Program-made: the position numbers and the translations under genes
Origin: Verrucomicrobiota bacterium
GTDB taxonomy: Bacteria; Verrucomicrobiota; Verrucomicrobiia; Limisphaerales; JAHDYP01
Reading direction: 5' to 3'
DNA length: 64,000 nt
Assembly (NCBI GenBank): GCA_023383055.1
Contig: JAHDYP010000013.1
Coordinates: 1-64,000 of the forward strand
The notes under the pieces: model-generated
What the model was told of the DNA's origin: nothing
The model's input: the letters and a program-made list of their open reading frames with translations, nothing else
Database searches by the model: none
In this document: positions 45,834 to 62,289 of the stretch, one piece after another
Numbering within the stretch: position 1 is the first letter of the stretch
Layout of the letters: each line of letters begins with the position of its first letter

Positions 45834-46562
45834 ATGCAGCACCTGGAATCCGAACTTCACCAGCTCAAACAGCGGCTCCTGACGATGGCGGGCACCGCCG
45901 AACAGGCCGTCAACCAGGCCGTCAAAGCCCTCGTCGACCGCGATGACGACCTCGCCCGCGGCGTGCGCGAACGGGATTCGGTCCTCGATCAGCTCGAAAT
46001 GGAGCTGGACGATTCCGCCATCCAGCTCCTCTCCAAAGCCCCGCTGGCCACCGATCTGCGGCTGATCACGGTGGTCATGAAGATCTCCCGGGACCTCGAG
46101 CGCATCGGCGACGAAGCCACCACCATCGCCCGGCGCACCATTGAGCTCGGCCAGGAACCCCAGCTCAAACCCTACGTCGATATCCCCAGAATGGCCGGCA
46201 TCGGCCTCGAAATGCTCAGGGACGCGCTCGATGCCTTCGTCACCCGCGACACCGAGAAAGCCCGCGCCGTTGTCCTCCGGGACAAGGAAGTCGACCAGAT
46301 CAACAAACAACTCCACCGCGAGCTCTCCAGCTTCATGGTCGAACGCCCCAGCACCATCACCCGGTGCCTGAATCTCATGGTCATCTCGAAGAGCCTCGAG
46401 CGCATCGCCGACCACGCCGCCAACATCGCCGAGGATGCCGTCTACCTCCACGAAGCCCGCGATATCCGCCACTCCGGCCTGCCCCGAAATCAATCCAGCT
46501 CACCATCCCCGGACTTGACCGGAGCGCCGGGGCGGATCCCCGCTACCGGTCAGACTCCGTGA
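45834..46562 (+). CDS. phoU: Phosphate-transport system regulator PhoU
   Basis: Two PhoU repeats: DLRLITVVMKISRDLERIGDEATTIARR and ITRCLNLMVISKSLERIADHAANIAEDAVY. Confidence 0.9.
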   Translation: MQHLESELHQLKQRLLTMAGTAEQAVNQAVKALVDRDDDLARGVRERDSVLDQLEMELDDSAIQLLSKAPLATDLRLITVVMKISRDLERIGDEATTIARRTIELGQEPQLKPYVDIPRMAGIGLEMLRDALDAFVTRDTEKARAVVLRDKEVDQINKQLHRELSSFMVERPSTITRCLNLMVISKSLERIADHAANIAEDAVYLHEARDIRHSGLPRNQSSSPSPDLTGAPGRIPATGQTP

Positions 46563-47733
46563 TTCGCGCGAGGCTCTCCAGCACGGCGGTGACCTCAATG
46601 CCCCGCATGCAGCGAAAATCGATCGGGCACGCCCTCCGGAAACAAGGCGCGCACGGAACGCCAGCCCGGAGCCAGGCGTGACGGGTGTCACCCGGGAGAC
46701 CGGGCCCGGTCAACTCGGGGGAAGTGCTGCCAAACGGCACCACCACCGGCGTGCCGACCGCCGCCGCCAGGTGCATCGGGCCGGTGTCGTTCGTGAGCAC
46801 CACCCGGCAGAGCTTCAGAACGGCGCAGAGTTCGCGCAGGGAGGTGCGTCCCGCCAGAACCAGCGGCGGGATTGCCGGGGCGCCGCCTGAATCACGCCGA
46901 CTCTCGCGCAGGATCTGTCCGGCGATATCCTCCGCCACCGCCACATCGCCCGCGCCCCCCAGGATCACCCATCGGCAATGCCATCGCCGCTGGGCCGCCA
47001 CCGCCACCGCCGCGAAGCGCTCCGCCGGCCAGCGTTTCGCGGGACCGTATTCCGCCCCCGGGTTCAATCCAAACCAGCGAGGGCCATCCAGGCCAAAACG
47101 CGACCGGGCGGCCGCCAGCTCCACCTCGGTCACCGACAGAAACGGCGCCAGTGGCTCGGGCGAGGCCCCGGCGGCGGCGGCCAGGTGCAGATAATGATGA
47201 ACGTGATGCGCGCGGGTGGGCGGGACCAAGCCCGGGTGCCTCAAGGGATCGGCCAGTCGGGCGCGGATTTCGTGAAGGGAACGCTTTACCATGGGAGTCG
47301 CGTCTGGCATCGCCGGCACCGCATCGGTCAGGAACACACTCCGAAACGGGTGCGCGAGGCCAATCCGGCGCGATACCCGGCCCAGCCAAAGCTCGAGCGC
47401 GGACCGTGGGGAATTGGGGAGAACCAGGCCCAGATCGAAGTGCCCCTGGCGCACGCGCTGCCCGAGGGTCCAGACCCCGTCGGCAGGGGTAAAGGCGGCG
47501 ATCTCATCGAGGGCGGGATGACCCTGGAACAACTCCGCGAGTTTGGCCGCGGTCAGCAGGGTGATGCGCGCCTGGGGATGGGCCTCGCGCAGACGCATCA
47601 GGGCCGGCGTGCTCATGACCGCGTCACCCAGCCAGTTGACGCCGCGGACCAGGATCCGGCCGGGCGTTCGTCCGCCGGGCGGGTGCTGGATTGGCGCAGC
47701 GGGTTTGGGGTCCGGGCCGGGCATGGGCTTCAA
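46543..47733 (-). CDS. ADP-heptose:LPS heptosyltransferase (GT9, WaaF/RfaF-like)
   Basis: ILVRGVNWLGDAVMSTPALMRL near the N-terminus. C-terminal NDTGPMHLAAAVGTPVVVPFGSTSPELTGP, the GT9 signature. 20-bp convergent overlap with phoU. Confidence 0.8.
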   Translation of the reverse strand: MKPMPGPDPKPAAPIQHPPGGRTPGRILVRGVNWLGDAVMSTPALMRLREAHPQARITLLTAAKLAELFQGHPALDEIAAFTPADGVWTLGQRVRQGHFDLGLVLPNSPRSALELWLGRVSRRIGLAHPFRSVFLTDAVPAMPDATPMVKRSLHEIRARLADPLRHPGLVPPTRAHHVHHYLHLAAAAGASPEPLAPFLSVTEVELAAARSRFGLDGPRWFGLNPGAEYGPAKRWPAERFAAVAVAAQRRWHCRWVILGGAGDVAVAEDIAGQILRESRRDSGGAPAIPPLVLAGRTSLRELCAVLKLCRVVLTNDTGPMHLAAAVGTPVVVPFGSTSPELTGPGLPGDTRHAWLRAGVPCAPCFRRACPIDFRCMRGIEVTAVLESLARITESDR

Positions 47734-48696
47734 GTCGAGGTGAGCGTTGATTCGACGGACGGTCGCGGGGTGCCGCCGGCTTTCAGGCGCCGCTGTTTCC
47801 AGCGGTTGTGCACCCAGAACCAGTTGGCGGGGTCGCGACGGATGGCGGCTTCAAAGGCGCGGTTGATATCGGCCGTGATGTCGGCGACGGATCTTCGTTT
47901 TCCCTCAACCCGGGTGGGGATCTCGTCGCCCACCTCGATCCGCCATCGGGCCAGGCCGGCGCGATAGCAGATCGCGGTGAACAGCGGACAACGATAACGC
48001 AAAGCCATGACCGCCGGCGCCGGCGTCGTCGAACAACGTCGCCCAAAGAACGGTCCCCAGACGCCGCTGCGCCCGGCGTGCTGATCCGCCAGCAAACCGA
48101 GCAGCAGCCCGCCCCGGCTCATCGCCGCCCTCAGCATGTCGCCCTGGAGCCGGCGCTCGAAGAACTCGCAACCGGATTTTTCGCGCAGGTCTTGCATCAA
48201 CCGATTCAAAGCCGGCTGGCGCAACGCGCGATACGTGGTGGCAAACCGGTAGCCGGGCGCGAATCCAAAGGCCGAAGCAAACAGCTCGAAGTTGCCGAAA
48301 TGACCGATCGCCACCACGCGGCTGGGGGGCGGTTGCACCTCGGGATGCGGCAGGATCTTTTCCGACCCCACGACTTCGAGGATGTCGCGCACCTCGGCGG
48401 CGGACATGTCAGCGGTGCGCACGGCGCAGGCGAAGTTCTCGCCGATGCGCCCGAAGTTTTCCCAAACCGTCCGCCGGATTGCCCTCGGGGTGAGTTCGCC
48501 GCCCAGGGCCTGCTCGAGGTTGCGCCGCGCCATGCGGCGATGGCGGAGATCCAGGCATCCGACCACCCGGCCGACCCAACGCCCCAACCGGGCGACCGTC
48601 CGCAGGGGCAGCGCGCGGATCAACCCGATGACGGTGTGCGCCAGACCGTTCAGGAGCGGGTCGACGATCGAACGCGGATGATTCATTCCCTTCGAG
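47730..48696 (-). CDS. Lipid A biosynthesis late acyltransferase (LpxL/HtrB family)
   Basis: Start MNHPRSIV (ATG ending 48696). VAIGHFGNFELFA (HxGNWE-like motif). ~322 aa. Its stop overlaps the heptosyltransferase start (ATGA). Confidence 0.75.
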
Positions 48697-48736
48697 ATTC
48701 GATTCACAAGGCGCTCTGACCCATGGGCAATCCGGC

Positions 48737-49909
48737 CTAGCGGAAACAGATCTGCCGGACGCAGTCCTGGAAATCCTTGGCGCCGCTGATGATTTTGATT
48801 TCGACGCGCATGAAGTAGATCGGCAGATCGCGCCGGTCGATCTTCGGGAAGCGCACGGCATCTTTCTGGGTGGTGATGATGACCTCGGCCTGTTTCTTCT
48901 TGCTCCGGTTGATCACGTTCAGGATTTCCTGCTGGCTGAACCGATGGTGATCCGCAAACCGCCGCGAATAGACCATCTCCGCACCCAGGTTCGTCAGGCT
49001 GCGCTCGAAGCTCTCCGGCTGGGCAATCCCGCTGAGGGTGGCGATTTTCCGGCCCTGCAGCGCCTCCAACCCGAACCGGTCGCCGGTGAACACATCCTCG
49101 AAATAGAGCGGATGATGCACGCATTCGACGATCCGGGCGGCCGGATTGAACGCCGCGATCCGTTTCCGCAGCTCGGACAGGTCCCCCTCGCTTTTGGTGA
49201 TGAACACCGTGTTGGCCCGGGCCAGGTGCGAGGGCGGTTCGCGCAGCGTGCCGCGCGGCAGGAGATGCTGGTTGCCGAACGGCTGCTGGCAATCGATCAA
49301 CACCACATCCATCCGCCGGCCGCGCAGCCGCCAGTATTGAAAACCATCGTCCAGCAGCAACGTGTCGCAACCGAACTTCTCGATCGCATACCGTCCGCTC
49401 TTCACCCGGTCCTTGTCGACCAGGACAATGACGTCCTTCAGGTTCGAGGCCAGCATGTAAGGTTCATCCCCCGCCGTCTCGGAATCCAACAGCAGCGATT
49501 TGCCGTCGGAGACCACCCGCGGCGGCGTCGTGTCCTCCCGGAACAGCAACTTGTTCATCACCCGGCGCGTGAGCGGCGGCGGCTTGGACCGATAGCCGCG
49601 CGACAGTATCGCCACCGTCCGGCCCTGGTCTTTGAGCTCGCGCGCGAACTTCTCGACCACCGGTGTCTTGCCGGTTCCGCCCACGGTGAGATTCCCGATC
49701 GCGATCACCTGCACCCCCAGGGTCCGATCCCGCAGGATCCGGAAGTTGTACAGGAACTGGCGTCCCTTCACCGCCACGAGAAACACCTTCGAAAGGCTCA
49801 GCAACAGGCCGCGCACCACCGCCGCGCGTTTCCCCCGCCATTGCCCGAAGATCACTTCGAGCACGAACGTTTCCAGGGATTCTGTCCAGGCTCGAACCCG
49901 ATCGCTCAT
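48737..49909 (-). CDS. lpxK: Tetraacyldisaccharide 4'-kinase
   Basis: [39 protein letters not shown], the LpxK P-loop region. 390 aa. Confidence 0.85.
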
Positions 49910-51377: not shown

Positions 51378-51664
51378 AGCTGTCCTCCAACCTGGCAACC
51401 GTTATGACGCAAAAGGAAATATTGGACCTCTATTTCGTCGAGGCCCGGAGCAAATTGATCGAGGTGGCCGCTTTCCTGGACCGGGTGGACCGTGGATCGG
51501 GCGAGGCGGATTTCCGGCGGGACGCCCTCCGGCAGGCGCTGCGGGCGCTCGAAACCGAGGGTCCGGACCGGGCGCGGCAGGTGTTGCTGGCCTTGAGCGA
51601 TCCGACCGTTGAACCAATTGCCGCCGCACCGGGCAAGGGCGCGATGGGAGCCTACGGAGGTTGA
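51374..51664 (+). CDS. Hypothetical small protein (96 aa) coupled to pepP
   Basis: ATG overlaps the pepP stop (aATGa). [41 protein letters not shown].... No family recognised. An alternative start MTQKEIL is at 51407. Confidence 0.4.
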
Positions 51665-51668
51665 GCGT

Positions 51669-52469
51669 ATGCGCTACATCGAACCTCACGCTCACATGGT
51701 CAGCCGGGTGACCGACGATTACCGCAACATGATGGCCGCCGGGTGCGCGGCGGTTTGCGAGCCCGCGTTTTGGGCCGGGTTCGATCGATCCTCGGCGAAT
51801 GGGTTTTACGATTACTTCTGTCAACTCACCGAACACGAGCCGCGGCGCGCGGCGAAGTTCGGGCTGCCGCACTTCAGTTGGCTCTGCATCAACCCGAAGG
51901 AATCCGAGGATGTCCGGCTGGCGGAAGAGGTGATCGCGTTGATTCCGCAATTCCTGGATCGGCCCAACGTGCTGGGGATTGGCGAGATCGGGCTGAACAA
52001 GAACTCGCGCAACGAGGTGCGGGTGCTCGAGATGCACGTCGACCTGGCGGCACGCCACGATCAATTGATCCTGGTGCATACCCCGCACCTCGAAGACAAG
52101 CTGAAAGGTACCCGCCTGACCCTGGACGTGCTCAAGAACGACCCGCGAATCCGGCCGGAACGTGTGATCATCGATCACGTCGAGGAACACACCATCAAAC
52201 TGGCGCTCGATGGGGGGTTCTGGGCGGGTCTGACCCTCTATCCGGACTCGAAGTGCAGCCCGGCGCGCGCGGTGGACATGTTCGAAGTCTACGGCCCCGA
52301 GCGGTTGTGGATGAACAGCGCCTGCGATTGGGGGGTGAGCATCCCCTTGAATGTGCCGTACACGGCCCTGGAGATGAGCCGCCGCGGCCATCCGCCGGAC
52401 GCGATCGACCGCTTCATCTATCGCAACCCGGCCGAGTTCCTAAGCCAGTGCCCCAAGTTCAGACTCTGA
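51669..52469 (+). CDS. TatD-related metal-dependent hydrolase
   Basis: [10 protein letters not shown] (His-x-His metal site), [16 protein letters not shown] and IIDHVEE match the TatD/amidohydrolase-fold motifs. Confidence 0.7.
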
Positions 52470-52485: not shown

Positions 52486-53475
52486 CTACGGTTGGGCTGC
52501 CGGCGGGCTTGCCTTGTGGCCAGCGACCATCGCCGCTTCCGCGAATGGCCCGGTGTCGTTTGACGGTTTCGAAAACCGGTAATAGAGCCAATTGCCGATG
52601 GGGACGAGCACCGCCGCGGTCATCATCCCGGCCACCACATCCACCACGTAGTGGTAGCGGCAGTAAACGGTGGAAATACAGAGGAGAATCACGTCCGCCA
52701 GATGCCAGTACCGGATGCGCGGCAAATACAGGAAGGAAAACCAAACCGTCACGATCGCAATGGTCACGTGGCTGCTCGGAAACGCCGCGCCGGGCGCCTC
52801 CAAGTGATGGTAGATCTGGCGCATGACCTTGAAAAACGGCCCCTTTTGAACGGCCTCCGGGTAAGGCGGAACATGCTCCGGCATGACCTCGGCGGGGACG
52901 TCATATCCCATCGACCCGCCGTTGAACGCCCGCGGTCCCATCACCGGCAGGATGATGTAGGTCAGGTAACAAACGTAAAACACAAAGGAGACCACCGAAA
53001 TGTAATGAAAAAATTGGGTCCGGTTCCGGATGAACAGGGCGATCCCAATGCCCAGAATCATGAGGTAATAACTGAAATAGGCCGCATAAAGCAGCTCACT
53101 CAACGCCAAATACGGCAGGCGATGCATGAACTCGAGGCTCGGTTGCATGCCGAAAATCCATTCCTCGAGCCGGATCAGCCAGGGATCCAGAAAATCGGCG
53201 AAAAACATGTGATGCAGCAAACCCGTCTCGCGATAGAACCCCGTGAACAACAGGATCGGGTAGAAATACCTCAGAAAATCCAGCACCCGGCCCGGCGGAC
53301 GGGAGGCATGCCGGCGGATCAGAGCGTGGATCAACACCAGCGCGATGCCGTGCGCGGCCACCAGGTATGGCCCCATCGGCGTCCGCTCGTTGTGAAACAC
53401 GAGCACCAAAAGCGCAACCACCAGCAGATAACCCTGGGTCGCGTAATCAACAAATGTATAGTTCTTCATTCCCAT
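52486..53475 (-). CDS. PAP2-superfamily (type-2 phosphatidic acid phosphatase / lipid phosphotransferase) membrane protein
   Basis: Multiple TM helices. PAP2 motifs KxxxxxxRP-like region, PSSHV, and YCRYHYVVDVVAG (SRxxxxxHxxxD). Confidence 0.8.
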   Translation of the reverse strand: MGMKNYTFVDYATQGYLLVVALLVLVFHNERTPMGPYLVAAHGIALVLIHALIRRHASRPPGRVLDFLRYFYPILLFTGFYRETGLLHHMFFADFLDPWLIRLEEWIFGMQPSLEFMHRLPYLALSELLYAAYFSYYLMILGIGIALFIRNRTQFFHYISVVSFVFYVCYLTYIILPVMGPRAFNGGSMGYDVPAEVMPEHVPPYPEAVQKGPFFKVMRQIYHHLEAPGAAFPSSHVTIAIVTVWFSFLYLPRIRYWHLADVILLCISTVYCRYHYVVDVVAGMMTAAVLVPIGNWLYYRFSKPSNDTGPFAEAAMVAGHKASPPAAQP

Positions 53476-53511
53476 CGCCGTTTAAACACGCCGGCCACTT
53501 CACCGCACCCG

Positions 53512-54501
53512 TCATGGCCGCAACCATCCCTGGGCACGATACCAGGCCAGCGTCCGCCCAATCCCCTCTTTCAACCCCGTCTCACAAACGAAACCCAGCT
53601 CCCGCCGCAGACGATCCGTCCCGGACACCCAGCCGGGGGCGACCACTTCGGCGAATTTCTGGCGACTGAGAATGTGAGGCCGGCCGGTCAGCCCGGATAC
53701 CAGATCGCGTCCGGCGCAGATCAGCCATAACAGCGGACGAGGCAGCGGCGGGATGAGGGGGCGCACGCCCATCTGGCGGGCGATTTCCTCGACCAGCCCG
53801 CGCGAGGTCACGACCTGCGGCTCCGCCACATGATAAACGCCGCCCGCTCCGCGGGGATGTTCCAGGCCCAGCGCAACCGCGTCCGCCAGATCACGCACGT
53901 AAACCAGGCTCAGCTCCTGCCGACCCTTCCTGACCAGGGGCGTCACCCGGCTGCCAACCGCCTTGAACAGGTTCAGAAAGTCGGGGTCGCGCGGTCCGTA
54001 GACCGCCGCCGGCCGCAGGATGCCGTAGGGCACGCGGCAGTGCTCCTGGATTTCCCGTTCGCCAGCCAGCTTGCTGCGTCCGTAAATCGTGACCGGTGCC
54101 GAGGCCATCTCTTCGGTGGCAGGTTCCGCCGACGTTGCCGGACGGGAGGCGGCCAGGCTGGAGATGTAGATCAAGCGGTCGAGCTTGGGCGCGTGTTGGT
54201 TGATGGCATCGACGAGTTGGCGCGTTCCCGCCTGATTGGCCTGGAAATAGTCCTTCGGGTTGACCGCCTTGGTGCAGCCGGCGCAGTGGACCACGTGGGT
54301 CACATCTTTCAGGGCGGTTTCGAGAACGGCGGGATCGGTCAGGCTGCCCGCCCGCACCTCCACCTGATCCAGCTGCTCCTGGATCCAGTGCCGGCGGGCG
54401 GTGGGCCGGAGCAGAATCACCAGGCTCATCCCGCGAGCCAGCAGCACATCCAGGATATGGCTCCCCACAAACCCATTCGCCCCGGTCAGGAGGACCTTCA
54501 T
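53512..54501 (-). CDS. NAD-dependent epimerase/dehydratase-family SDR (CerR-like candidate)
   Basis: MKVLLTGANGFVGSHILDVL (Rossmann GxxGxxG), catalytic YxxxK-type region (YGRSKLAGE). 329 aa, in an operon with the SPT-like and PAP2 genes. Confidence 0.8.
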   Translation of the reverse strand: MKVLLTGANGFVGSHILDVLLARGMSLVILLRPTARRHWIQEQLDQVEVRAGSLTDPAVLETALKDVTHVVHCAGCTKAVNPKDYFQANQAGTRQLVDAINQHAPKLDRLIYISSLAASRPATSAEPATEEMASAPVTIYGRSKLAGEREIQEHCRVPYGILRPAAVYGPRDPDFLNLFKAVGSRVTPLVRKGRQELSLVYVRDLADAVALGLEHPRGAGGVYHVAEPQVVTSRGLVEEIARQMGVRPLIPPLPRPLLWLICAGRDLVSGLTGRPHILSRQKFAEVVAPGWVSGTDRLRRELGFVCETGLKEGIGRTLAWYRAQGWLRP

Positions 54502-54522
54502 CGCGCCCGAGCCCGCACGGGC

Positions 54523-55830
54523 TCAAATCAGGCCCAACTCTTTGCCCACCTCACCGAGTTTATCGAGCGCGAAATCGATCTGACGGTCGGTGTGGGTGGC
54601 CATGAGGCTGATCCGGATCAGCTCGCGCCCGGGGTTGACGCCCGGTGAAACGACCGGGTTGACGAACACGCCCTCCTGCTCGAGCCGTTTGCACATCCGG
54701 AAGGTCAGCATCAGATCGCGAACGTAGACCGGCAGGATCGGGGTCTCGGAGACGCCCAGGTCAAAGCCGAGCGACTGCAGGCCCCGTTTCATCCGCTCGG
54801 TATTGTGCCAGAGGTTGGCGATGCGCTCCGGCTCGCGGATCATGATCTCCAGGGCCGCCAGCACCGCCGCCGCGTTTGCGGGACTCATGCTGGCGCTGAA
54901 AATCAACGCCCGCGAGTGGTGCTTCAAATAGTCTATCGTCTCGAAGTCAGAGGCGACGAACCCGCCCAGGCTTGCCAATGACTTGCTGAAGGTGCCCATG
55001 ATCAGGTGCACGTCGTCGGTCAAACCGAAATGACTGGCCGTGCCCGCTCCTTGTCGACCCAGGACCCCGATGCCGTGGGCATCGTCCACCATCACGGCAG
55101 CCTGGTGCTTCCGCGCCAACTGGCATAGCTCGGGCAGTTGGATGATGTCACCCTCCATGCTGAACACGCCGTCCACGACGATCAGTTTGCCGGCTTCGGG
55201 AGCCAGCTTCTGGAGCCGGCTTTCGAGCGCCCCGAGATCCTTGTGCGGGAACCGGATAAACTCGCCCTGGGCAAGATGGCAACCGTCAACAATCGAAGCG
55301 TGATTGCTCTTGTCCCCCAGGATGTATTCATCCCGTCCCACCAGGGCGCTGATCACCCCAAGATTGACCTGGAACCCGGTGCTATAGAGGAGCACCGACT
55401 CTTTTTGGACCCAACGCGCAAGAGCTTCTTCCAGCTCGAGGTGGATCTGCAGGGTCCCGTTCAGAAAACGGGATCCGGCGCAGCCAGTCCCATATTTATC
55501 AACGGCTGCCCGGGCTGCTTCCTTGATCTTGGGATGGTTCGTCAGCCCCAGATAACTGTTCGACCCCAACATCAACACCTTCTTGCCCTCAATGATCACT
55601 TCCGTGTCCTGGGCGGAGGAAATCGTCCGAAAGTAAGGATAGAGCCCCAGGGACCGCACTTGGGCCGCACTCCGAAACGCCCGCGCCTTTTCGAGCAGCG
55701 GCACACCGCCGGCCGACGCCGCATGCTGCCCCGGACCGGCTGCGGCTGGACGGGCGGCCTGTGGGGCCACGCCCTTCTTAGGTGGCTCCTTAGGTTGTGC
55801 AAGGGTTTCAACCCGCTCAGTTATGTTCAT
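54523..55830 (-). CDS. Alpha-oxoamine synthase family PLP enzyme, serine palmitoyltransferase-like (alternatively BioF-like)
   Basis: Start [16 protein letters not shown] (ATG ending 55830). PLP-lysine motif [21 protein letters not shown] and [10 protein letters not shown] are typical of SPT/KBL/BioF. Confidence 0.8.
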
Positions 55831-55954
55831 ATTTGAGCTGCCAAAAGAATGGCGGCTAGGGCGTTTTAGGGCAAACCATTTAAAAATGCCATGGAAACTT
55901 GCCCCCTCGATTTGGATGCTGACCTGGTAACCGTCCCTGCTACGATCCAAGGGC

Positions 55955-56566
55955 ATGGACCTGTCGACCGCCCTCAAGACCTCCCTGGTCCTAACCGCCG
56001 CTTACGCCCTCGGTTGCTTTGCAACCGGTTACTACCTCGTCCGGCTCCGGACTACCCGCGATATCCGCCAAACCGGCAGCGGAAGCATCGGCGCCACCAA
56101 CGTGTCACGGGTCCTGGGCTGGCCCGGCTTTGTCGTCACCCTGATCCTGGACGCGGGCAAGGCCGCGCTCACGGTGTTCCTCGCCCGCCACTGTCAACTG
56201 GATTCCTGGGCCATCTGGCTGGCCGTCCTCGCCGTGGTCGCCGGCCACGTCTGGCCAGTCCAACTCCGTTTCCGGGGCGGGAAAGGGGCCGCAACCTACC
56301 TCGGTGCGGTGCTTACGTTCGACTGGAGGTTCGGACTGGTTCTGGTTCCCCTGACGCTGGCCGGTTATCTCATCGCCCGACATCCAACCCTGGCCGGTCT
56401 GGTCGCGGTGGCGGTCCTGCCCGCGGTCCTCTGGATGGTTGGCTTTCCGCGGGATGTCAACCTCGGTCTGGCCGCCCTGGCGACGCTGATTCTCTTCGCC
56501 CATCGCACCAACATTCGTGCGGGAATATGCCAAATCAGACTGGACGAAGGATTGGGCAGGGAATAG
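55955..56566 (+). CDS. plsY: Glycerol-3-phosphate acyltransferase PlsY
   Basis: [14 protein letters not shown] and RGGKGAATY motifs. Five hydrophobic segments. 203 aa. Confidence 0.8.
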
Positions 56567-56592
56567 AACGCTCCAGCCAATTCCAACTGCGC

Positions 56593-58206
56593 ATGACTGA
56601 TGGCTCCCTGACGTTCAAGATCGCATCGACCGAATCCGAGTTTGAGCAGATCTTCAGGCTCAATTACCGGACGTTCGTCGAAGAGATACCCCAGCACCCG
56701 CCCAATGCCGAGCGGCGGCTGGTGGACCGGTTTCATCACCAGAACAGCTATCTGATCGCCCTCAACGACGATGAGTTGGTGGGCATGATGGCCGTGCGCG
56801 ATCAACGCCCCTTCTCGCTCGACGAGAAACTGGGCAGCATTGACACCTACCTTCCACCCGGCCGCAGTGTCTGCGAGATCCGGCTGCTCTCCGTCATCCC
56901 CACCCACCGGACCGGCTCTGTCTTTCAGGGACTGCTCAAGCTCCTGCTGGATTACGGCATCAAAAAGCGATACAACCTCGCCGTCATCTCCGGCACGGTC
57001 CGGCAACAGAAGCTCTATAAGCACCTTGGCTTCACTCCGTTCGGTCCGCTCGTGGGGCCGCCCGAAGCCCAATACCAACCGATGTACCTCACCATCGAGG
57101 GCTTCCGGGAAAATGCCGCCCCCATACTGAACGATGTCTCAGCCGCCGAACGCTCGTTGAATCCCATCAGCCTGTTGCCTGGCCCCGTCAGTATCCGAGA
57201 GGAAGTCCGACAGGCATTGATCGCCCCGGCCACCTCGCATCGGGCTGAACCGTTCAAGGTACAACTGGCCCAGACCCAACAGCATCTTTGTCAACTCGTT
57301 CAAGCTAAACATGTTGAAATCATGCTCGGCTCGGGCACCCTCGCCAATGACGCAATCGCCGCCCAGCTCTCCCTCCAACCGGCTCCCGGTCTCGTCCTAA
57401 GCAACGGCGAGTTCGGCTCACGCCTGATCGACCATGCCCGAAGATTTCGGCTAACCTTCACTCCGGTCGAGCTGGAGTGGGGACAACCATTTGACCCCCA
57501 GCAACTAACAAAGATTCTCGATTCGCGGCCCGAGACAGGCTGGCTCTGGACCACAGCCTGTGAAACTTCAACGGGCGTGCTGAACGACCTCCCGCTACTC
57601 CAGGAACTCTGCGTCGCCCGAGGGATCAAGCTCTGCCTCGACGCTATCAGCGCGATCGGCGTCATCCCGCTGCGGCTTGACCGCGTTTACCTCGCTTCCG
57701 GCGTCAGCGGCAAGGGCTTGGGCGCTTTCCCGGGTCTTTCGATGGTTTTTTACCAGCACGATCTTGAACCACGTCCGGACCGGTTGCCGCGATACCTCGA
57801 CCTCGGTTTCTACGCCCGTCACGGCGGAATCCCTTTCACCCAGTCCTCGAACCTGCTCATGGCCCTGTGGACGGCGCTCAAGCGCTATGATTCCCCGCAA
57901 CCCTTTGCCGAAGTTCGCGAACTCTCCGCCTGGCTTCGTCCCCGGCTACGGGAGCTGGGCCTGCGAATTCTGGCGCCGGACGAACATGCCGCCCCGAACA
58001 TTATTACGCTGGTGCCGCCCCCTTCGCTGAGTGCCGAGGCCCTTGGGGATCAACTCCTGGAAGCGGGCTTTCTGGTCAGCTACCAGAGCGACTATTTGCG
58101 CAATCGGAACTGGCTGCAGATTTGTCTGATGGGCGAATGCTCGAGAGCCGTTCTGGTTGGCTTGCTGACCGAGCTCAAGAACCGGCTGACCAACTTTCGA
58201 AGCTGA
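56593..58206 (+). CDS. Fusion: GNAT-like N-acyltransferase domain (OlsB / bacterial-ceramide-synthase-like) + class-V aminotransferase domain
   Basis: ATG 56593 (MTDGSLTFKIASTESEFEQIFRLNYRTFVEEI...). The N-terminal ~170 aa have the OlsB/hemolysin-like GNAT pattern (FRLNYRTFVEEI, IALNDDELVGMMAVRD). The remaining ~360 aa resemble serine-pyruvate/AGXT-type fold-type-I aminotransferases. Confidence 0.7.
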   Translation: MTDGSLTFKIASTESEFEQIFRLNYRTFVEEIPQHPPNAERRLVDRFHHQNSYLIALNDDELVGMMAVRDQRPFSLDEKLGSIDTYLPPGRSVCEIRLLSVIPTHRTGSVFQGLLKLLLDYGIKKRYNLAVISGTVRQQKLYKHLGFTPFGPLVGPPEAQYQPMYLTIEGFRENAAPILNDVSAAERSLNPISLLPGPVSIREEVRQALIAPATSHRAEPFKVQLAQTQQHLCQLVQAKHVEIMLGSGTLANDAIAAQLSLQPAPGLVLSNGEFGSRLIDHARRFRLTFTPVELEWGQPFDPQQLTKILDSRPETGWLWTTACETSTGVLNDLPLLQELCVARGIKLCLDAISAIGVIPLRLDRVYLASGVSGKGLGAFPGLSMVFYQHDLEPRPDRLPRYLDLGFYARHGGIPFTQSSNLLMALWTALKRYDSPQPFAEVRELSAWLRPRLRELGLRILAPDEHAAPNIITLVPPPSLSAEALGDQLLEAGFLVSYQSDYLRNRNWLQICLMGECSRAVLVGLLTELKNRLTNFRS

Positions 58207-59973: not shown

Positions 59974-62289
59974 TCACCTCCCCGCCGATCGACCGAGTCG
60001 TTCGATCATGCGGGCCACCTGGTCCCGGCGCTCTTCGATAGGCTCACCGTCCGGGGTGAACTCGGTGAGGCTGGCCGTGATGCTGGCGGGCACGATCAAC
60101 AACTGACGCGCCTCGGACTCGAGGGCCGCCGGGATCCGGCCCGCATGGGCGTCGAGGATCCGTCGCAGCATGGCCAGATATTCGTAATCCTCGAGTCCAT
60201 CACGCAGGTGTTCCCATCGGATGCTGTCGACCGGGCCGTCAAGCACGGGACCGGCGCTGTCGGCGTTGGCGGCGGCCATGGGCGGGTAAAGGAAGCGTCC
60301 GTCGCCATTGCCCCAGGGACGTTTGTCACCCGCGGGCGTGCTGTAACCGGAGGTCCAGCTCATCGGATCGGTGTACGGATTCTGGGGACGTTGCGGGTCG
60401 GGGTAGGCCGCGTCGCTGGTCCAATAGGTTGATTCCCACACCAGGATGCCTTCGATGTTCCGCTGGAAGGTCTGCCAGAGCCAAATGCGCAGTTCCGGCG
60501 CGGGATGATCGATGAAAAGGCCGGCGTAGGGTGCTTTGGGGCCGGTGCAGACGTACCACCAGAACTTTTCGCCGAACTTGCGCCGGGCCTCGGCACGCTC
60601 GTGATCGTAGGCGTCGCTGATGCTGCACCAGATGTTCGGGCCGCCGATCAGGCCCGGCTCAACCTGTTCGGTCAGCATGCGGGCGATGCCGGGGCTGGAG
60701 CGTTTGAGTTTGTTGAAGCCGTTTTGGACAAACGGATACTGGTCGGGGCTCGGCTCATCGAACCAGTAAACAAAGGCGGCATCCAGCCAGCCGCGTGCCT
60801 TGAGATGTGCCTCGAGCTGCCGACAGTACGAATCGAACAGGACCGGGTACTCGGGCGTATCCTCAGCGAACCCGAGCAGGCTCGGTTCGGAGATGGCGTG
60901 AAACGTTCCGCCGCCGATGCCGGGAATGTGCACCTGGAACGAGTTGAAATGGTATTGGCTCATGGCCCGGTCCATGGCCCGGTCCCAGGCGGCAAAATCG
61001 AGGCGCACCTCGAGCTGGTCGAGCGGGAGGACCGGCTCGGTCCGGCGCGCGGGTTCGAAATCGCCTCCTTGTACCAGCGCCACGCCCGTGTCGGCATCGA
61101 CAATCGCGATGTCGTCGAACCAGACCAAACCGATCCCTTCCCCGGCGTCGGTCCAGGTCGTGGCGCGGGCATGGAACTGGACGAACCGGGCACCGGGCGG
61201 GAAGCCGGTGATCAGTTCATCGATCTGCTGCCAGGCGCCACTGCCCCGCAACGTGATGTCGTTGTTCCGACCGGACATCCATTTCCGGTCGGCATCGAAG
61301 TGATTGATCGAGACCATGAACCGGTGGCCGGGCACGGCGGTGCGGTGCCAGGCGGAGACGCGCAGACCTTTGGCCGGGATCGGGATCAACGGTTCGTAAG
61401 TCACGGTGACATTCCGATCGGACCGGTCGTCATAAATCAGCAGCGCCCCCGCGCCGCTGTGGGTCTCGTTCGTCTCAATGCGCAGGCCCAGCCAGGGCGA
61501 CGCCGCCCCTTGCGGCGGACGCGCGTCCGGCCATTGGACACGGATGGGATCAAGCGGGGCGGGGTTGTAGGGGGAGATGCGATGAGCGGCGAGGTTCGCC
61601 CAGTACTTCTCGAGCACCGTTCGTTTATCGGCCTCGGTCTGGAGCCGGTGATAGCGAAAGACGTTGTTGGGCGAAAACCCGAAGGCCGTGGTGCACGTCA
61701 TCCGGTCGGGAAGCGTGAAGTCGTAAACCGTCAATTCAAGAGGAGCGACGGCCGCCCAATCCCGGGCGCGCAGCCGCAGTTCTCCCCGGTAAACCCCCGG
61801 GCGCGCATCCGGGGGCGCGTGGATCCGGATCCAGAAGGCATGGTTGGCGTTGGCTGACAGGTCGAGCGGCGCGCTGATGGGGAAGAGCGGGTCCGGCCAT
61901 GGGCCCGGTGCACCGGCGCGATCGGTCGGTTGCGCGATCTGGACCTGGCCCACCTCGAGGATCTCGATCTGTCCGGGCGCGATGGTGGCGCCATCCCGGC
62001 CGACCAGCGGCGCGGGCTCGATCACGAATCCGACCAACGCTCCGGCAGGTCGGACGATGAGTTGCGCGGCGTCGGTTTCGCTCCGCGCGCAGCGGATGCG
62101 AATGGCCTCGTCCCGGCGCGCCGGCGGGGTTTGCCCGGGACGGATCTTGGCGGCACTGGACCACGCCCACCAGAGTTGGGCGTTGGGCGGTTGCTCGGGA
62201 AGCAACGCGCCGGCCGCGACCTGGGCATCGGCATGGACGGTTGCCAGGACGGCACCGGCCAGCAGGAACCACCGCGGAACCGGTTTCAT
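59974..62289 (-). CDS. Secreted DUF4091-type glycoside-hydrolase-like protein
   Basis: Signal peptide MKPVPRWFLLAGAVLATVHADA. C-terminal region (FWWYVCTGPKAPYAGLFIDHPAPELRIWLWQTFQRNIEGILVWESTYW...GDGRFLYPP) is characteristic of DUF4091 / GH-like proteins. Confidence 0.6.
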   Translation of the reverse strand: MKPVPRWFLLAGAVLATVHADAQVAAGALLPEQPPNAQLWWAWSSAAKIRPGQTPPARRDEAIRIRCARSETDAAQLIVRPAGALVGFVIEPAPLVGRDGATIAPGQIEILEVGQVQIAQPTDRAGAPGPWPDPLFPISAPLDLSANANHAFWIRIHAPPDARPGVYRGELRLRARDWAAVAPLELTVYDFTLPDRMTCTTAFGFSPNNVFRYHRLQTEADKRTVLEKYWANLAAHRISPYNPAPLDPIRVQWPDARPPQGAASPWLGLRIETNETHSGAGALLIYDDRSDRNVTVTYEPLIPIPAKGLRVSAWHRTAVPGHRFMVSINHFDADRKWMSGRNNDITLRGSGAWQQIDELITGFPPGARFVQFHARATTWTDAGEGIGLVWFDDIAIVDADTGVALVQGGDFEPARRTEPVLPLDQLEVRLDFAAWDRAMDRAMSQYHFNSFQVHIPGIGGGTFHAISEPSLLGFAEDTPEYPVLFDSYCRQLEAHLKARGWLDAAFVYWFDEPSPDQYPFVQNGFNKLKRSSPGIARMLTEQVEPGLIGGPNIWCSISDAYDHERAEARRKFGEKFWWYVCTGPKAPYAGLFIDHPAPELRIWLWQTFQRNIEGILVWESTYWTSDAAYPDPQRPQNPYTDPMSWTSGYSTPAGDKRPWGNGDGRFLYPPMAAANADSAGPVLDGPVDSIRWEHLRDGLEDYEYLAMLRRILDAHAGRIPAALESEARQLLIVPASITASLTEFTPDGEPIEERRDQVARMIERLGRSAGR

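Follow-up and report, generated by a model that had tools for sequence, protein, structure and literature searches.

An SPT-type operon and a divergent plsY–acyltransferase-aminotransferase gene pair in a Verrucomicrobiota bacterium: two probable lipid modules

Gene organization

The window, that is, the whole stretch of 64,000 nucleotides that was analysed, carries five genes between positions 52486 and 58206, three on the minus strand and two on the plus strand:

52486..53475, minus strand: AUR1-like integral membrane protein of the PAP2_3 family, last of the three genes in the sphingolipid operon
53512..54501, minus strand: extended SDR of the NAD-dependent epimerase/dehydratase family (Pfam Epimerase)
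54523..55830, minus strand: SPT-type alpha-oxoamine synthase (AOS), 435 aa (NCBIfam and PDB scores)
55831..55954, no strand: divergent intergenic region of 124 bp separating the SPT operon from plsY and the fusion gene (sequence reading)
55955..56566, plus strand: PlsY-family acyl-phosphate-dependent acyltransferase, 203 aa (Pfam G3P_acyltransf)
56593..57150, plus strand: fusion protein, N-terminal NAS GNAT domain, approximately residues 1-185 (FeeM and Acetyltransf_5)
57151..58206, plus strand: fusion protein, C-terminal fold-type-I class-V (AGXT/PhnW-like) PLP domain (Foldseek, phmmer, invariant residues)

Pfam and NCBIfam searches confirmed all five genes as they had been described in a sequence-only reading of this DNA. 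The AOS begins with MNITERV, the listed ORF of 484 aa being over-extended. The fusion gene occupies 56593-58206 and encodes 537 aa, a 100% match to a protein (P0001) deposited from a Verrucomicrobia MAG; a 771-aa ORF at 55891-58206 was rejected as an over-extension, its frame differing from that of plsY. The minus-strand genes are 36 and 21 nt apart, and on the plus strand 26 nt separate plsY from the fusion gene; this spacing is compatible with two divergent operons 124 bp apart. No sigma-70 consensus was found in the 124-bp intergenic region, this consensus being uninformative for the Verrucomicrobial phylum.

The SPT operon

The AOS possesses a Pro/Ala-rich N-terminal extension of approximately 44 residues and the PLP-lysine motif GTFSKS (residues 279-284). 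It scored 611.5 bits against NCBIfam SerpalmtaseCFB (cut-off 640) versus 391 against each of BioF and KBL. Among PDB entries, the biochemically characterised SPT of Sphingobacterium multivorum gave 482 bits, Thermus BioF/KBL 307, and the solved cysteate acyltransferases 230 (cysteate-C-fatty acyltransferase) and 219. Both profile and PDB scores place the protein much closer to SPT of known function than to BioF, KBL or CapB, in agreement with its original classification in the SPT/alpha-oxoamine-synthase family. Homologues with 75-89% identity are widespread across the Verrucomicrobia.

The SDR matches Pfam Epimerase with 115.7 bits and has the motifs GxxGxxG (residues 7-13) and YxxxK (residues 140-144); no signal peptide was found at its N-terminus. 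Its top NCBIfam matches are the lipid-acting HpnA and OleD, with scores well under their cut-offs. Its placement in the SPT operon is borne out by related operons, in which the SDR gene always lies directly after SPT, or after SPT and a gene, X, described below. We regard it as a candidate for the 3-keto reduction step, either as a CerR-like enzyme or as a KDS reductase.

The membrane protein scored 62.4 bits against Pfam PAP2_3 (cut-off 27), and also matches PAP2 and, weakly, PAP2_C. Its catalytic motifs, PSSH (His236) and RYHYVVD (His275, Asp279), retain an intact His-His-Asp triad, and the motif residues are invariant in 17 homologues. When the family profile was compared with the PDB, the sole match was yeast AUR1, the IPC synthase, with an E-value of 2e-4 and an alignment spanning the catalytic motifs. 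BT_1522 of Bacteroides thetaiotaomicron, a bacterial AUR1 homologue, has been shown experimentally to be a PI-dihydroceramide synthase (PMC9246714). The PAP2_3 protein is thus a candidate ceramide phospho-head-group transferase, and the resemblance to AUR1 renders plausible the earlier suggestion that it transfers a head group.

Of 80 metagenome loci, 36 have SPT, SDR and PAP2 in colinear order; most of the remaining SPT loci are truncated at contig ends or fall in a more distant group without PAP2. The same order is found among unrelated flanks in three further loci (L090-L092). This colinearity in dozens of related loci gives good support to a sphingolipid operon, and the view of the minus-strand genes as a sphingolipid-type cluster therefore stands, in the form of a tight SPT-SDR-PAP2_3 operon with its order kept in relatives.

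Gene X, a separate GNAT-like gene of 371 aa, lies within or beside the SPT operon of relatives. It separates SPT from SDR in L135-L139, in L142 and in Bacteroidota-like loci with an SPT above the NCBIfam cut-off (756.7 against 640); in 12 Verrucomicrobial loci it is convergent and 3′ of PAP2. An HMM search of the 64-kb window gave no match to X. Its product is probably bCerS, an assignment for which, as regards identity with the bCerS of Caulobacter or B. fragilis, the basis is gene position and GNAT fold only.

The PlsY-like protein and the fusion protein

The PlsY-like protein matches Pfam G3P_acyltransf over its full length (136 bits) and scored 118.9 against the NCBIfam PlsY equivalog, under the cut-off of 137.2, as did all seven fusion-associated PlsY-like proteins tested. 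It is one of a slightly divergent group of PlsY-like proteins whose genes accompany that of the fusion. Its catalytic and binding motifs are shared with E. coli and Aquifex PlsY, and no active-site change pointing to an acceptor other than G3P was seen in these proteins.

The architecture of the fusion protein is not rare: a search of other genomes found it encoded in at least 585 species genomes. The NAS domain scored 40.9 against Pfam FeeM (cut-off 27) and 33.1 against Acetyltransf_5/PF13444 (cut-off 22.4), and both families were matched by 14 of 14 fusion-family members tested. The AF2 model of this region has a pLDDT mostly between 80 and 90. No relationship between this GNAT domain and the X family was detectable by hhalign (probability 2%).

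For the aminotransferase domain, the top Foldseek match is an AEP transaminase (7e7g; E 4e-28, TM 0.86), and the NCBIfam PhnW-AepZ score is 144.6, under the cut-off of 360.8. The PLP residues Lys374 (in SGKGLG) and Asp350 are kept and invariant. A transaminase must bind a carboxylate-bearing amino donor, and the domain here is without the canonical Arg. Within a SerC-like SHRxxxF motif at residues 215-221, His216-Arg217-x3-Phe221 is likewise invariant and aligns, weakly (hhalign E 0.019), with His41/Arg42 of SerC, a pair known from structural work to bind phosphate. Alignment with 2yri reveals that the canonical substrate-carboxylate Arg of AGT, PhnW and SerC is replaced by an invariant Gln509 (WLQICLMG); this replacement is in keeping with a phosphorylated ketone that has no carboxylate, for example dihydroxyacetone phosphate (DHAP).

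Linkage of the two gene groups

Of 80 genome loci with the fusion gene, 59 have a PlsY-like gene adjoining it, and the two often overlap by 4 nt; in 19 of the 78 assessable loci no PlsY lies within 8 kb of the fusion. Single PlsY-NAS-aminotransferase polypeptides occur in at least two lineages: P0258, from a Nibricoccus MAG and verified on the DNA, and P0245/P0391. The pair is also found, at 42-46% identity, in Bacillales, namely in Cytobacillus spongiae and on a conjugative plasmid of Bacillus toyonensis. SPT was found near none of the 80 fusion loci, and neither PlsY nor the fusion near any of the 80 SPT loci. The conserved partner of the fusion across phyla is the PlsY-like gene, not SPT.

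The juxtaposition of SPT with the plsY-fusion pair is confined to one small subclade. In L090, with an SPT 86% identical to that of the window, a DHOase gene directly adjoins SPT with no plsY-fusion pair between them. The divergent five-gene block itself is present in the window and, with different flanks, in at least three further lineages (L081, L083 and L084); two of these, L083 and L084, have both X and the fusion. Such recurrence amid different flanks indicates that the arrangement is not due to chance, and its retention in at least four lineages despite flank turnover hints at a functional or regulatory link.

Proposed pathways and alternative explanations

The substrates and products that follow are inferred from the gene identities, families, conserved residues and linkage observed above. 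We favour, with moderate confidence, two independent lipid modules, A and B, which are neighbours in one Verrucomicrobial subclade, B being a two-gene serinol-lipid unit. In module A (52486-55830, minus strand) SPT would join serine and an acyl thioester to form 3-ketosphinganine, the cytoplasmic SDR would reduce the 3-keto group on the free or N-acylated base, and the AUR1-like PAP2_3 protein would move a phospho-head-group from a glycerophospholipid onto (dihydro)ceramide; N-acylation would most likely be performed by X, located outside the 64-kb window in the source organism. Module B (55955-58206, plus strand) is a self-contained, cross-phylum unit of the PlsY-like protein and the NAS-aminotransferase fusion. 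Its PLP domain would transaminate DHAP (or 1-acyl-DHAP) to serinol phosphate, the NAS domain would N-acylate the new amine, and the PlsY-like enzyme would O-acylate the free hydroxyl. The predicted products are N-acyl-serinol(-phosphate) lipids, amide-linked analogues of lyso-phosphatidic or phosphatidic acid. The plsY-fusion pair probably makes a separate amide-linked lipid of this sort, and not ceramide.

The fusion might instead make an N-acyl amino-acid lipid of the OlsB, GlsB or FeeM type, its aminotransferase making or remodelling the amino-acid head group; its linkage to PlsY would then reflect shared membrane-lipid regulation only. The families FeeM and PF13444 comprise N-acyl amino acid synthases, the usual substrates of the AGXT family are amino and keto acids, and there are the 19 fusion loci without PlsY; but the loss of the carboxylate-binding Arg to an invariant Gln, and the covalent PlsY-NAS-aminotransferase proteins and cross-phylum pairing, which point to a mechanistic rather than a regulatory link, make this unlikely.

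Another possibility is that all five genes serve a single route to ceramide, with the NAS domain acting as ceramide synthase, analogous to bCerS, and the aminotransferase altering the long-chain base or providing a precursor. Sphinganine is a C-alkylated serinol, and a NAS acylating a 2-amino-1,3-diol could by inference accept it; with the five-gene block kept amid different flanks and no X/bCerS-like gene anywhere in the 64-kb window, the source organism may be without X and use the fusion's NAS domain on sphinganine. We consider this quite unlikely: L083 and L084 carry both X and the fusion, the GNAT domain of the fusion shows no detectable relationship to X, linkage or covalent fusion to PlsY extends across phyla and onto Bacillus plasmids without a nearby SPT, the fusion is absent from the 80 SPT loci surveyed, and the adjacency is missing in L090. 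Of the single ceramide cluster proposed from the sequence, the SPT-SDR-PAP2 sphingolipid operon survives, and the bCerS-like role of the fusion is not supported, given a separate X in relatives and PlsY as the conserved partner.

That the minus-strand operon makes some other alpha-oxoamine-derived lipid, either a capnine-like sulfonolipid or an amino alcohol derived from acyl-glycine or acyl-alanine, is very doubtful. The SPT score falls slightly under the equivalog cut-off and sequence gives no certain substrate specificity for an AOS; against this stand the margin of SPT over the cysteate acyltransferases in the PDB comparison, the orthology of the operon to Bacteroidota SPT-X-SDR operons with SPT above the cut-off, and the co-transcribed putative AUR1-like ceramide head-group transferase. 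It is highly improbable that the aminotransferase is a 2-aminoethylphosphonate (AEP) transaminase, the module making N-acyl-AEP or feeding phosphonolipid or ceramide-AEP synthesis, for while PhnW/AepZ-type AEP transaminases head both the NCBIfam and the PDB matches and the PDB holds a PntC-AEPT fusion (6pd1), the score lies far below the equivalog cut-off, the phosphonate/carboxylate-binding Arg is missing, and PEP mutase or phosphonopyruvate decarboxylase adjoins the fusion in none of approximately 90 loci inspected.

Comparison with known systems

The bacterial ceramide pathway consists of Spt, bCerS and CerR, as in Caulobacter crescentus and in B. fragilis (BF9343_4218, BF9343_4240). The window operon resembles this pathway, and the BT_1522 system, in its CFB-type SPT with an epimerase-family SDR directly downstream, and its relatives do so in having a GNAT-like gene within the operon or next to it; the window itself contains no X, the putative bCerS. 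Caulobacter CerR is periplasmic (PMC11087976), whereas the window SDR is without a signal peptide. The AUR1-like PAP2 protein, with its His-His-Asp triad, is like BT_1522 a likely head-group transferase, but BT_1522 lies within an inositol cluster and the window PAP2_3 gene is co-transcribed with SPT. Unlike the Proteobacteria, the window SPT is accompanied by neither a dedicated ACP nor an acyl-ACP synthetase.

Compared with the PlsX/PlsY/PlsC system, the PlsY-like protein retains every conserved PlsY motif and is similar over its full length to the Aquifex and E. coli enzymes. It differs in its sub-cut-off equivalog scores, in that the B. toyonensis copy is an extra, plasmid-borne one, and in having an N-acyltransferase/aminotransferase as partner instead of PlsC. 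The fusion has the fold-type-I class-V architecture and the PLP Lys and Asp of AGXT, PhnW and SerC, the GSGT, NGxxGxR and CETSTG motifs of PhnW and the SHR..F motif of SerC, but it carries Gln for their carboxylate/phosphonate Arg and reaches no family cut-off. Cj1437, a DHAP aminotransferase yielding serinol phosphate, is likened to the fusion, as is RtxA, by proposed function. In RtxA this activity resides in the N-terminal domain (PMC3222319).

The N-acyl serinol synthase of Gemella haemolysans is reportedly a two-domain enzyme (Cohen et al. 2017), with an aminotransferase domain that may be homologous to that of the window fusion. It is grouped with the N-acyl synthases of the PF13444/FeeM type, as is the NAS domain at the N-terminus of the fusion; the fused PLP aminotransferase domain could supply the amine, and full-length fusion homologues occur in Bacillales, the order of Gemella. 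A single Gemella nas gene yields N-acyl serinols in E. coli (PMC13012048). The window fusion gene differs in being paired, and elsewhere sometimes fused, with a PlsY-like acyltransferase, which suggests an O-acylated or phosphorylated membrane lipid and not a free N-acyl serinol signal.

Gene organization

The five genes form two divergent units separated by a 124-bp intergenic region, and were assigned with Pfam and NCBIfam as follows:

52486-53475, minus strand, PAP2_3 protein
53512-54501, minus strand, extended SDR
54523-55830, minus strand, alpha-oxoamine synthase (AOS), serine palmitoyltransferase (SPT) type
55955-56566, plus strand, PlsY-family gene
56593-58206, plus strand, NAS-aminotransferase fusion

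Every domain named in the sequence-only reading was recovered with these databases. The minus-strand genes are spaced by 36 and 21 nt, while 26 nt lie between the PlsY stop codon and the fusion start. A promoter scan of the divergent 124-bp region did not find a sigma-70 consensus, which is uninformative for this phylum. The fusion product from 56593 (537 aa), in which a GNAT-type NAS domain is joined to a class-V aminotransferase (AT) domain, matches a deposited Verrucomicrobia MAG protein (P0001) at 100% identity. A longer 771-aa ORF (55891-58206, plus strand) is artefactual: the frame upstream is open but is not that of plsY, and the first ~230 codons are a non-coding alternative frame over that gene. 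ORF length alone is misleading here, because true in-frame PlsY-NAS-AT fusions of 734-768 aa exist elsewhere.

A run of LPS genes (46543-49909, minus strand), encoding a GT9 heptosyltransferase, a lipid A lauroyl-type acyltransferase (LpxL-like) and LpxK, lies 3-6 kb from the SPT operon, with an Xaa-Pro peptidase and a TatD-like hydrolase standing between. On the other side, 1.8 kb past the fusion and beyond dihydroorotase, is a gene (59974-62289, minus strand) whose 771-aa product has a GH123-type catalytic domain. GH123 is a family of N-acetylgalactosaminidases acting on glycosphingolipids; the proximity of this gene is probably a coincidence.

The sphingolipid-type operon

Whether the AOS enzyme groups with SPT, BioF or KBL had been raised as a question, and the scores answer it as SPT-type. 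The protein carries a fold-type-I AOS domain (Pfam Aminotran_1_2, 190 bits), and its GTFSKS PLP-lysine motif aligns with the corresponding motif of the Sphingobacterium multivorum SPT. In a PDB search it scores 482 bits with the latter, characterised enzyme (3a2b/8guh), followed by 307 with Thermus BioF/KBL, 278 with KBL, 230 and 219 with solved cysteate acyltransferases of the CapB type, and about 200 with BioF (201); by bit score it is nearer characterised SPTs than BioF, KBL or cysteate acyltransferase. The NCBIfam model SerpalmtaseCFB gives 611.5 bits, narrowly under its cut-off of 640 and some 200 bits over any non-SPT model, BioF and KBL both being at ~391. A biotin (BioF) assignment is rejected on the NCBIfam and PDB scores together. 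Homologues with 75-89% identity are abundant in Verrucomicrobia, and earlier work had already described Spt-like genes in MAGs of Verrucomicrobiota (PMC11334938). Residues 1-44 of the window SPT (54523-55830, minus strand) form a Pro/Ala/Gly-rich N-terminal extension, which is absent from the Sphingobacterium SPT. Verrucomicrobial homologues (434-440 aa) keep the extension length, and its role could be membrane association.

The SDR, which comes after SPT (or after SPT and a further gene, X, discussed below) in related loci, matches Pfam Epimerase with 115.7 bits; its GxxGxxG occupies residues 7-13 and its YxxxK residues 140-144. Its nearest curated NCBIfam families are the lipid-acting HpnA and OleD, with scores far under their cut-offs. 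By inspection the protein has no signal peptide and opens straight with the NAD-binding motif MKVLLTGANGFVGS, whereas the CerR of Caulobacter is periplasmic (PMC11087976). The suggested CerR-like class holds as far as the extended SDR motifs and the position adjoining spt are concerned, and fails for a periplasmic location.

The PAP2 protein scores 62.4 bits with PAP2_3 (Pfam cut-off 27). Residues His236, His275 and Asp279, which align with the catalytic motifs of AUR1, do not vary among 17 homologues. The AF2 model (mean pLDDT 55) was too poor for fold comparison, and a sequence profile of the 17 homologues was searched against the PDB instead; the sole match was AUR1, the catalytic subunit of yeast inositol-phosphorylceramide synthase, spanning both catalytic motifs. 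In B. thetaiotaomicron, knockout showed that a bacterial AUR1 homologue, BT_1522, is the PI-dihydroceramide synthase (PMC9246714). Because of this exclusive match and the BT_1522 precedent, and in keeping with the operon context, the PAP2_3 protein is a reasonable candidate for transferring a head group onto ceramide, as had been proposed.

A metagenome scan with the window SPT found SPT-SDR-PAP2 colinear in 36 of 80 loci, most of the remainder being cut by a contig edge or derived from a more distant group. On three long contigs (L090-L092) the order is kept with unrelated flanks. The SPT scores, this colinearity and the AUR1-like PAP2 bear out the earlier view of the minus-strand operon, and argue for a genuine sphingolipid-type cluster. 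It adds a compact Spt/CerR-like/AUR1-like (+X) locus for Verrucomicrobiota, a phylum flagged only lately as a potential sphingolipid producer, and offers a candidate bacterial ceramide phosphotransferase co-transcribed with SPT.

Gene X

In more distant SPT loci a gene for a protein of 371-372 aa, here called X, lies between SPT and SDR. The order is SPT-X-SDR-PAP2 in L135-L139 and L142, and SPT-X-SDR in Bacteroidota-like loci such as L144, whose SPT (756.7 bits) is over the NCBIfam cut-off. X is GNAT-like, with weak Acetyltransf_1 and FemAB-like matches and no NCBIfam model. The bacterial ceramide synthase gene, bCerS, often clusters with spt and cerR (PMC11334938); from its gene position and GNAT fold, we infer that X is a putative bCerS.

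Among the Verrucomicrobial loci nearest the window, PAP2 is directly followed by a convergent gene for a full-length homologue of X with 37-39% identity (L090, L097, L098, L102, L112, L115, L117, L120, L125, L126, L128 and L132). X is also present in L083 and L084, both of which carry the plsY-fusion pair, so X and the fusion coexist in one locus. Neither tblastn (E<1e-3) nor an HMM of 30 X sequences searched against the six-frame translation (E<=10) found X in the window, where the position it holds in relatives is occupied by the TatD-like gene and the Xaa-Pro peptidase. The TatD-like gene (51609-52469, plus strand) is convergent with PAP2, and its positional counterpart in L083 (1-1098) and L084 (4540-5718) is X. 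TatD and PepP lie ~9 kb off on the other side in L081, which points to a local rearrangement.

The fusion family and its linkage to PlsY

The N-terminal NAS half of the fusion matches FeeM (40.9; cut-off 27) and Acetyltransf_5 (PF13444; 33.1; cut-off 22.4), and all 14 fusion family members tested have the two matches. A word-indexed search returned 6,244 matches to the fusion, and when 1.84 billion representatives were searched with a profile, 7,871 matched at E<=1e-3, 956 of them at E<=1e-30. The architecture is not unusual in occurrence: it is encoded in at least 585 species genomes, mostly Verrucomicrobiota of the Limisphaerales and Pedosphaera, with cultured Limisphaera among them, and in thousands of metagenome proteins. 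Carriers with complete or near-complete genomes include the Verrucomicrobiae chromosome OY969416.1, Limisphaera sp. 4302-co and VF-2, and Pedosphaera parvula Ellin514. Other MAGs with the fusion are labelled Planctomycetota, Methylomirabilota, Desulfobacterota, Acidobacteriota and Dehalococcoidia, some of these labels appearing unreliable. Among loci L004-L006, L010, L012, L013, L033, L045, L049 and L054, several MAGs are labelled Dehalococcoidia, Bifidobacteriaceae or Bifidobacterium and have proteins 54-59% identical to Verrucomicrobial ones; the labels of these records look unreliable.

Neighbours were counted within 8-10 kb on either side of each match. The sole recurrent one is a PlsY-like gene directly upstream of the fusion on the same strand, in 59 of 80 genome loci (59 of the 78 assessable), often with a 4-nt overlap. 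The 19 loci without it have only unrelated neighbours (GlgC, KDO8P synthase, PtsI and a metallophosphoesterase). The three domains also occur in single PlsY-NAS-AT polypeptides, namely P0258 (768 aa; Nibricoccus MAG; verified on its contig) and P0245/P0391 (734/749 aa, four sources). In Bacillales the two-gene unit (42-46% identity over the full length) is found on a replicon of Cytobacillus spongiae and on a 290-kb conjugative plasmid of Bacillus toyonensis (strain Puebla_S2), the PlsY-like gene being immediately upstream in both; the plasmid-borne copy is presumably an extra, dedicated one. The single polypeptides and the Bacillales unit tie the fusion mechanistically to PlsY.

The window PlsY-like protein has a full-length G3P_acyltransf domain (Pfam, 136 bits) and keeps GSGxxGATN, DxxK, GHxxP, GGKG and HR.N in common with the E. 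coli and Aquifex enzymes. On TIGR00023 it scores 118.9, under the cut-off of 137.2, as do all seven fusion-linked PlsY-like proteins tested, the window's included (95.5-123.9). These seven retain every conserved PlsY motif.

Some loci have further genes nearby. In Cytobacillus spongiae (L176; NZ_CP089998, 4637-9461) a TMEM164-family membrane protein is encoded upstream of the pair and an LtaS-like sulfatase-family protein overlaps it downstream, with an alpha/beta hydrolase and a glycerophosphodiester phosphodiesterase near by; these surroundings suggest a larger island related to lipids or teichoic acid. In L086/L087 (4394-7744), where the pair is away from SPT, the stretch 2-5 kb upstream of plsY encodes a short PAP2_3 protein of 196 aa, a B12-binding radical SAM enzyme and a member of the fatty-acid hydroxylase family, and may be another lipid-modification cluster.

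Adjacency to SPT is by comparison restricted. Across the 80 genome loci, the 8 kb around the fusion never includes an SPT operon, and neither PlsY nor the fusion was found in the 80 SPT loci. The two units adjoin in one subclade only (the window, L081/L082, L083 and L084/L085; SPTs 77-86% identical). In L090, with an SPT 86% identical, the plsY-fusion pair is absent and DHOase abuts SPT, while in the window the pair stands between DHOase and SPT.

On the model drawn from the sequence-only reading, all five genes form one ceramide pathway with the fusion NAS domain as its ceramide synthase. Conservation of the five-gene block in its subclade would agree with this or with some residual link, as would the missing X in 64 kb of window and the fact that sphinganine is a substituted serinol; however, X and the fusion stand together in L083 and L084, and the fusion is linked with PlsY across genomes and with SPT in a single subclade. 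We consider this model decidedly improbable. Comparison of the fusion GNAT domain with X showed no specific relationship (hhalign probability 2%; no HMM match), and with no general linkage to spt either, a bCerS-like step for that domain finds no backing. Judged on these comparisons, the fusion is not the ceramide synthase of the SPT/SDR/PAP2 pathway. Its place is with PlsY, the two making up a separate, uncharacterised module that crosses phyla. The earlier interpretation was half right, in its sphingolipid-type operon, and not in linking the fusion with that pathway. As a lesson for annotation, a GNAT gene beside spt should not be called a ceramide synthase unless the linkage has been checked in other genomes.

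The aminotransferase active site

The AT domain has an AGXT/PhnW-type fold (AF2 pLDDT >90 across most of the domain), and Foldseek matches it to the AEP transaminase 7e7g (E 4e-28, TM 0.86). No variation is seen in the PLP lysine (Lys374), the pyridine-N aspartate (Asp350) or the PhnW-like motifs GSGT, NGEFGxR and CETSTG, even among the Bacillus proteins and the standalone ones. AGT, PhnW and SerC hold the carboxylate or phosphonate of their substrate with an Arg on the "(F/L)R(I/L)G" strand; here Gln509 takes its place, without exception among 14 + 9 diverse members. An invariant SHRxxxF (His216, Arg217, Phe221) aligns with SHRGKEF of SerC, although the alignment is weak, local hhalign having aligned the N-terminal motif region alone. 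In SerC, His41 and Arg42 of this motif bind the substrate phosphate.

A role in AEP or phosphonolipid metabolism is rejected as unlikely: the score on the PhnW/AepZ equivalog (144.6) is under the cut-off (360.8), the substrate-binding Arg is missing, and genes for PEP mutase (Ppm) or Ppd were seen in none of the fusion neighbourhoods inspected.

Standalone proteins of ~360 aa (P0340, P0348, P0353 and others) match the AT half only, scoring ~400 bits, with both Lys374 and Gln509 retained. In the one context examined (L094, 8001-9086), neither a GNAT nor a PlsY gene is adjacent.

A proposed amide-lipid pathway

The phosphate-binding dyad and the lost carboxylate clamp lead us to expect DHAP as the substrate. 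DHAP is phosphohydroxypyruvate with CH2OH replacing COO-. The Gemella N-acyl serinol synthase of Cohen et al. (2017) reportedly carries an aminotransferase domain, on which literature searches returned nothing explicit. Gemella (Bacillales) makes N-acyl serinols, and a lone nas gene is enough for this in E. coli (PMC13012048); DHAP aminotransferases yielding serinol phosphate are known, e.g. RtxA (PMC3222319). Because of the SHR dyad, Gln509 and these two precedents, we propose a pathway whose chemistry is inferred throughout: the PLP domain would convert DHAP (or acyl-DHAP) to serinol phosphate, the NAS domain would N-acylate the amine, and the PlsY-like enzyme would O-acylate the product.

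In its full form the proposal is that the PlsY-like, NAS and AT activities build 1-O-acyl-2-N-acyl-2-amino-2-deoxyglycerol-3-phosphate, an amide-linked analogue of phosphatidic acid, from DHAP, co-regulated with sphingolipids in the subclade. We advance this tentatively, since as a whole it is rather unlikely to hold in each particular. Such co-regulation would mean that two kinds of amide-linked lipid are made from one divergent promoter region. The module is widespread in Verrucomicrobiota, is found in further soil phyla as well, and is mobile on Bacillus plasmids.

Of the two units, the PlsY-NAS-AT module is the more interesting and is worth following up. It could reveal an amide-linked glycerophospholipid analogue; such a backbone, if true, is previously undescribed. 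If the products are N-acyl-serinol-type lipids, a class known until now as gut-bacterial GPR119 agonists would gain a setting in the environment and in membrane lipids. Set beside the known enzymes of glycerolipid synthesis, the amide-lipid backbone reading would have the AT domain substitute for GpsA and the NAS domain for PlsC.
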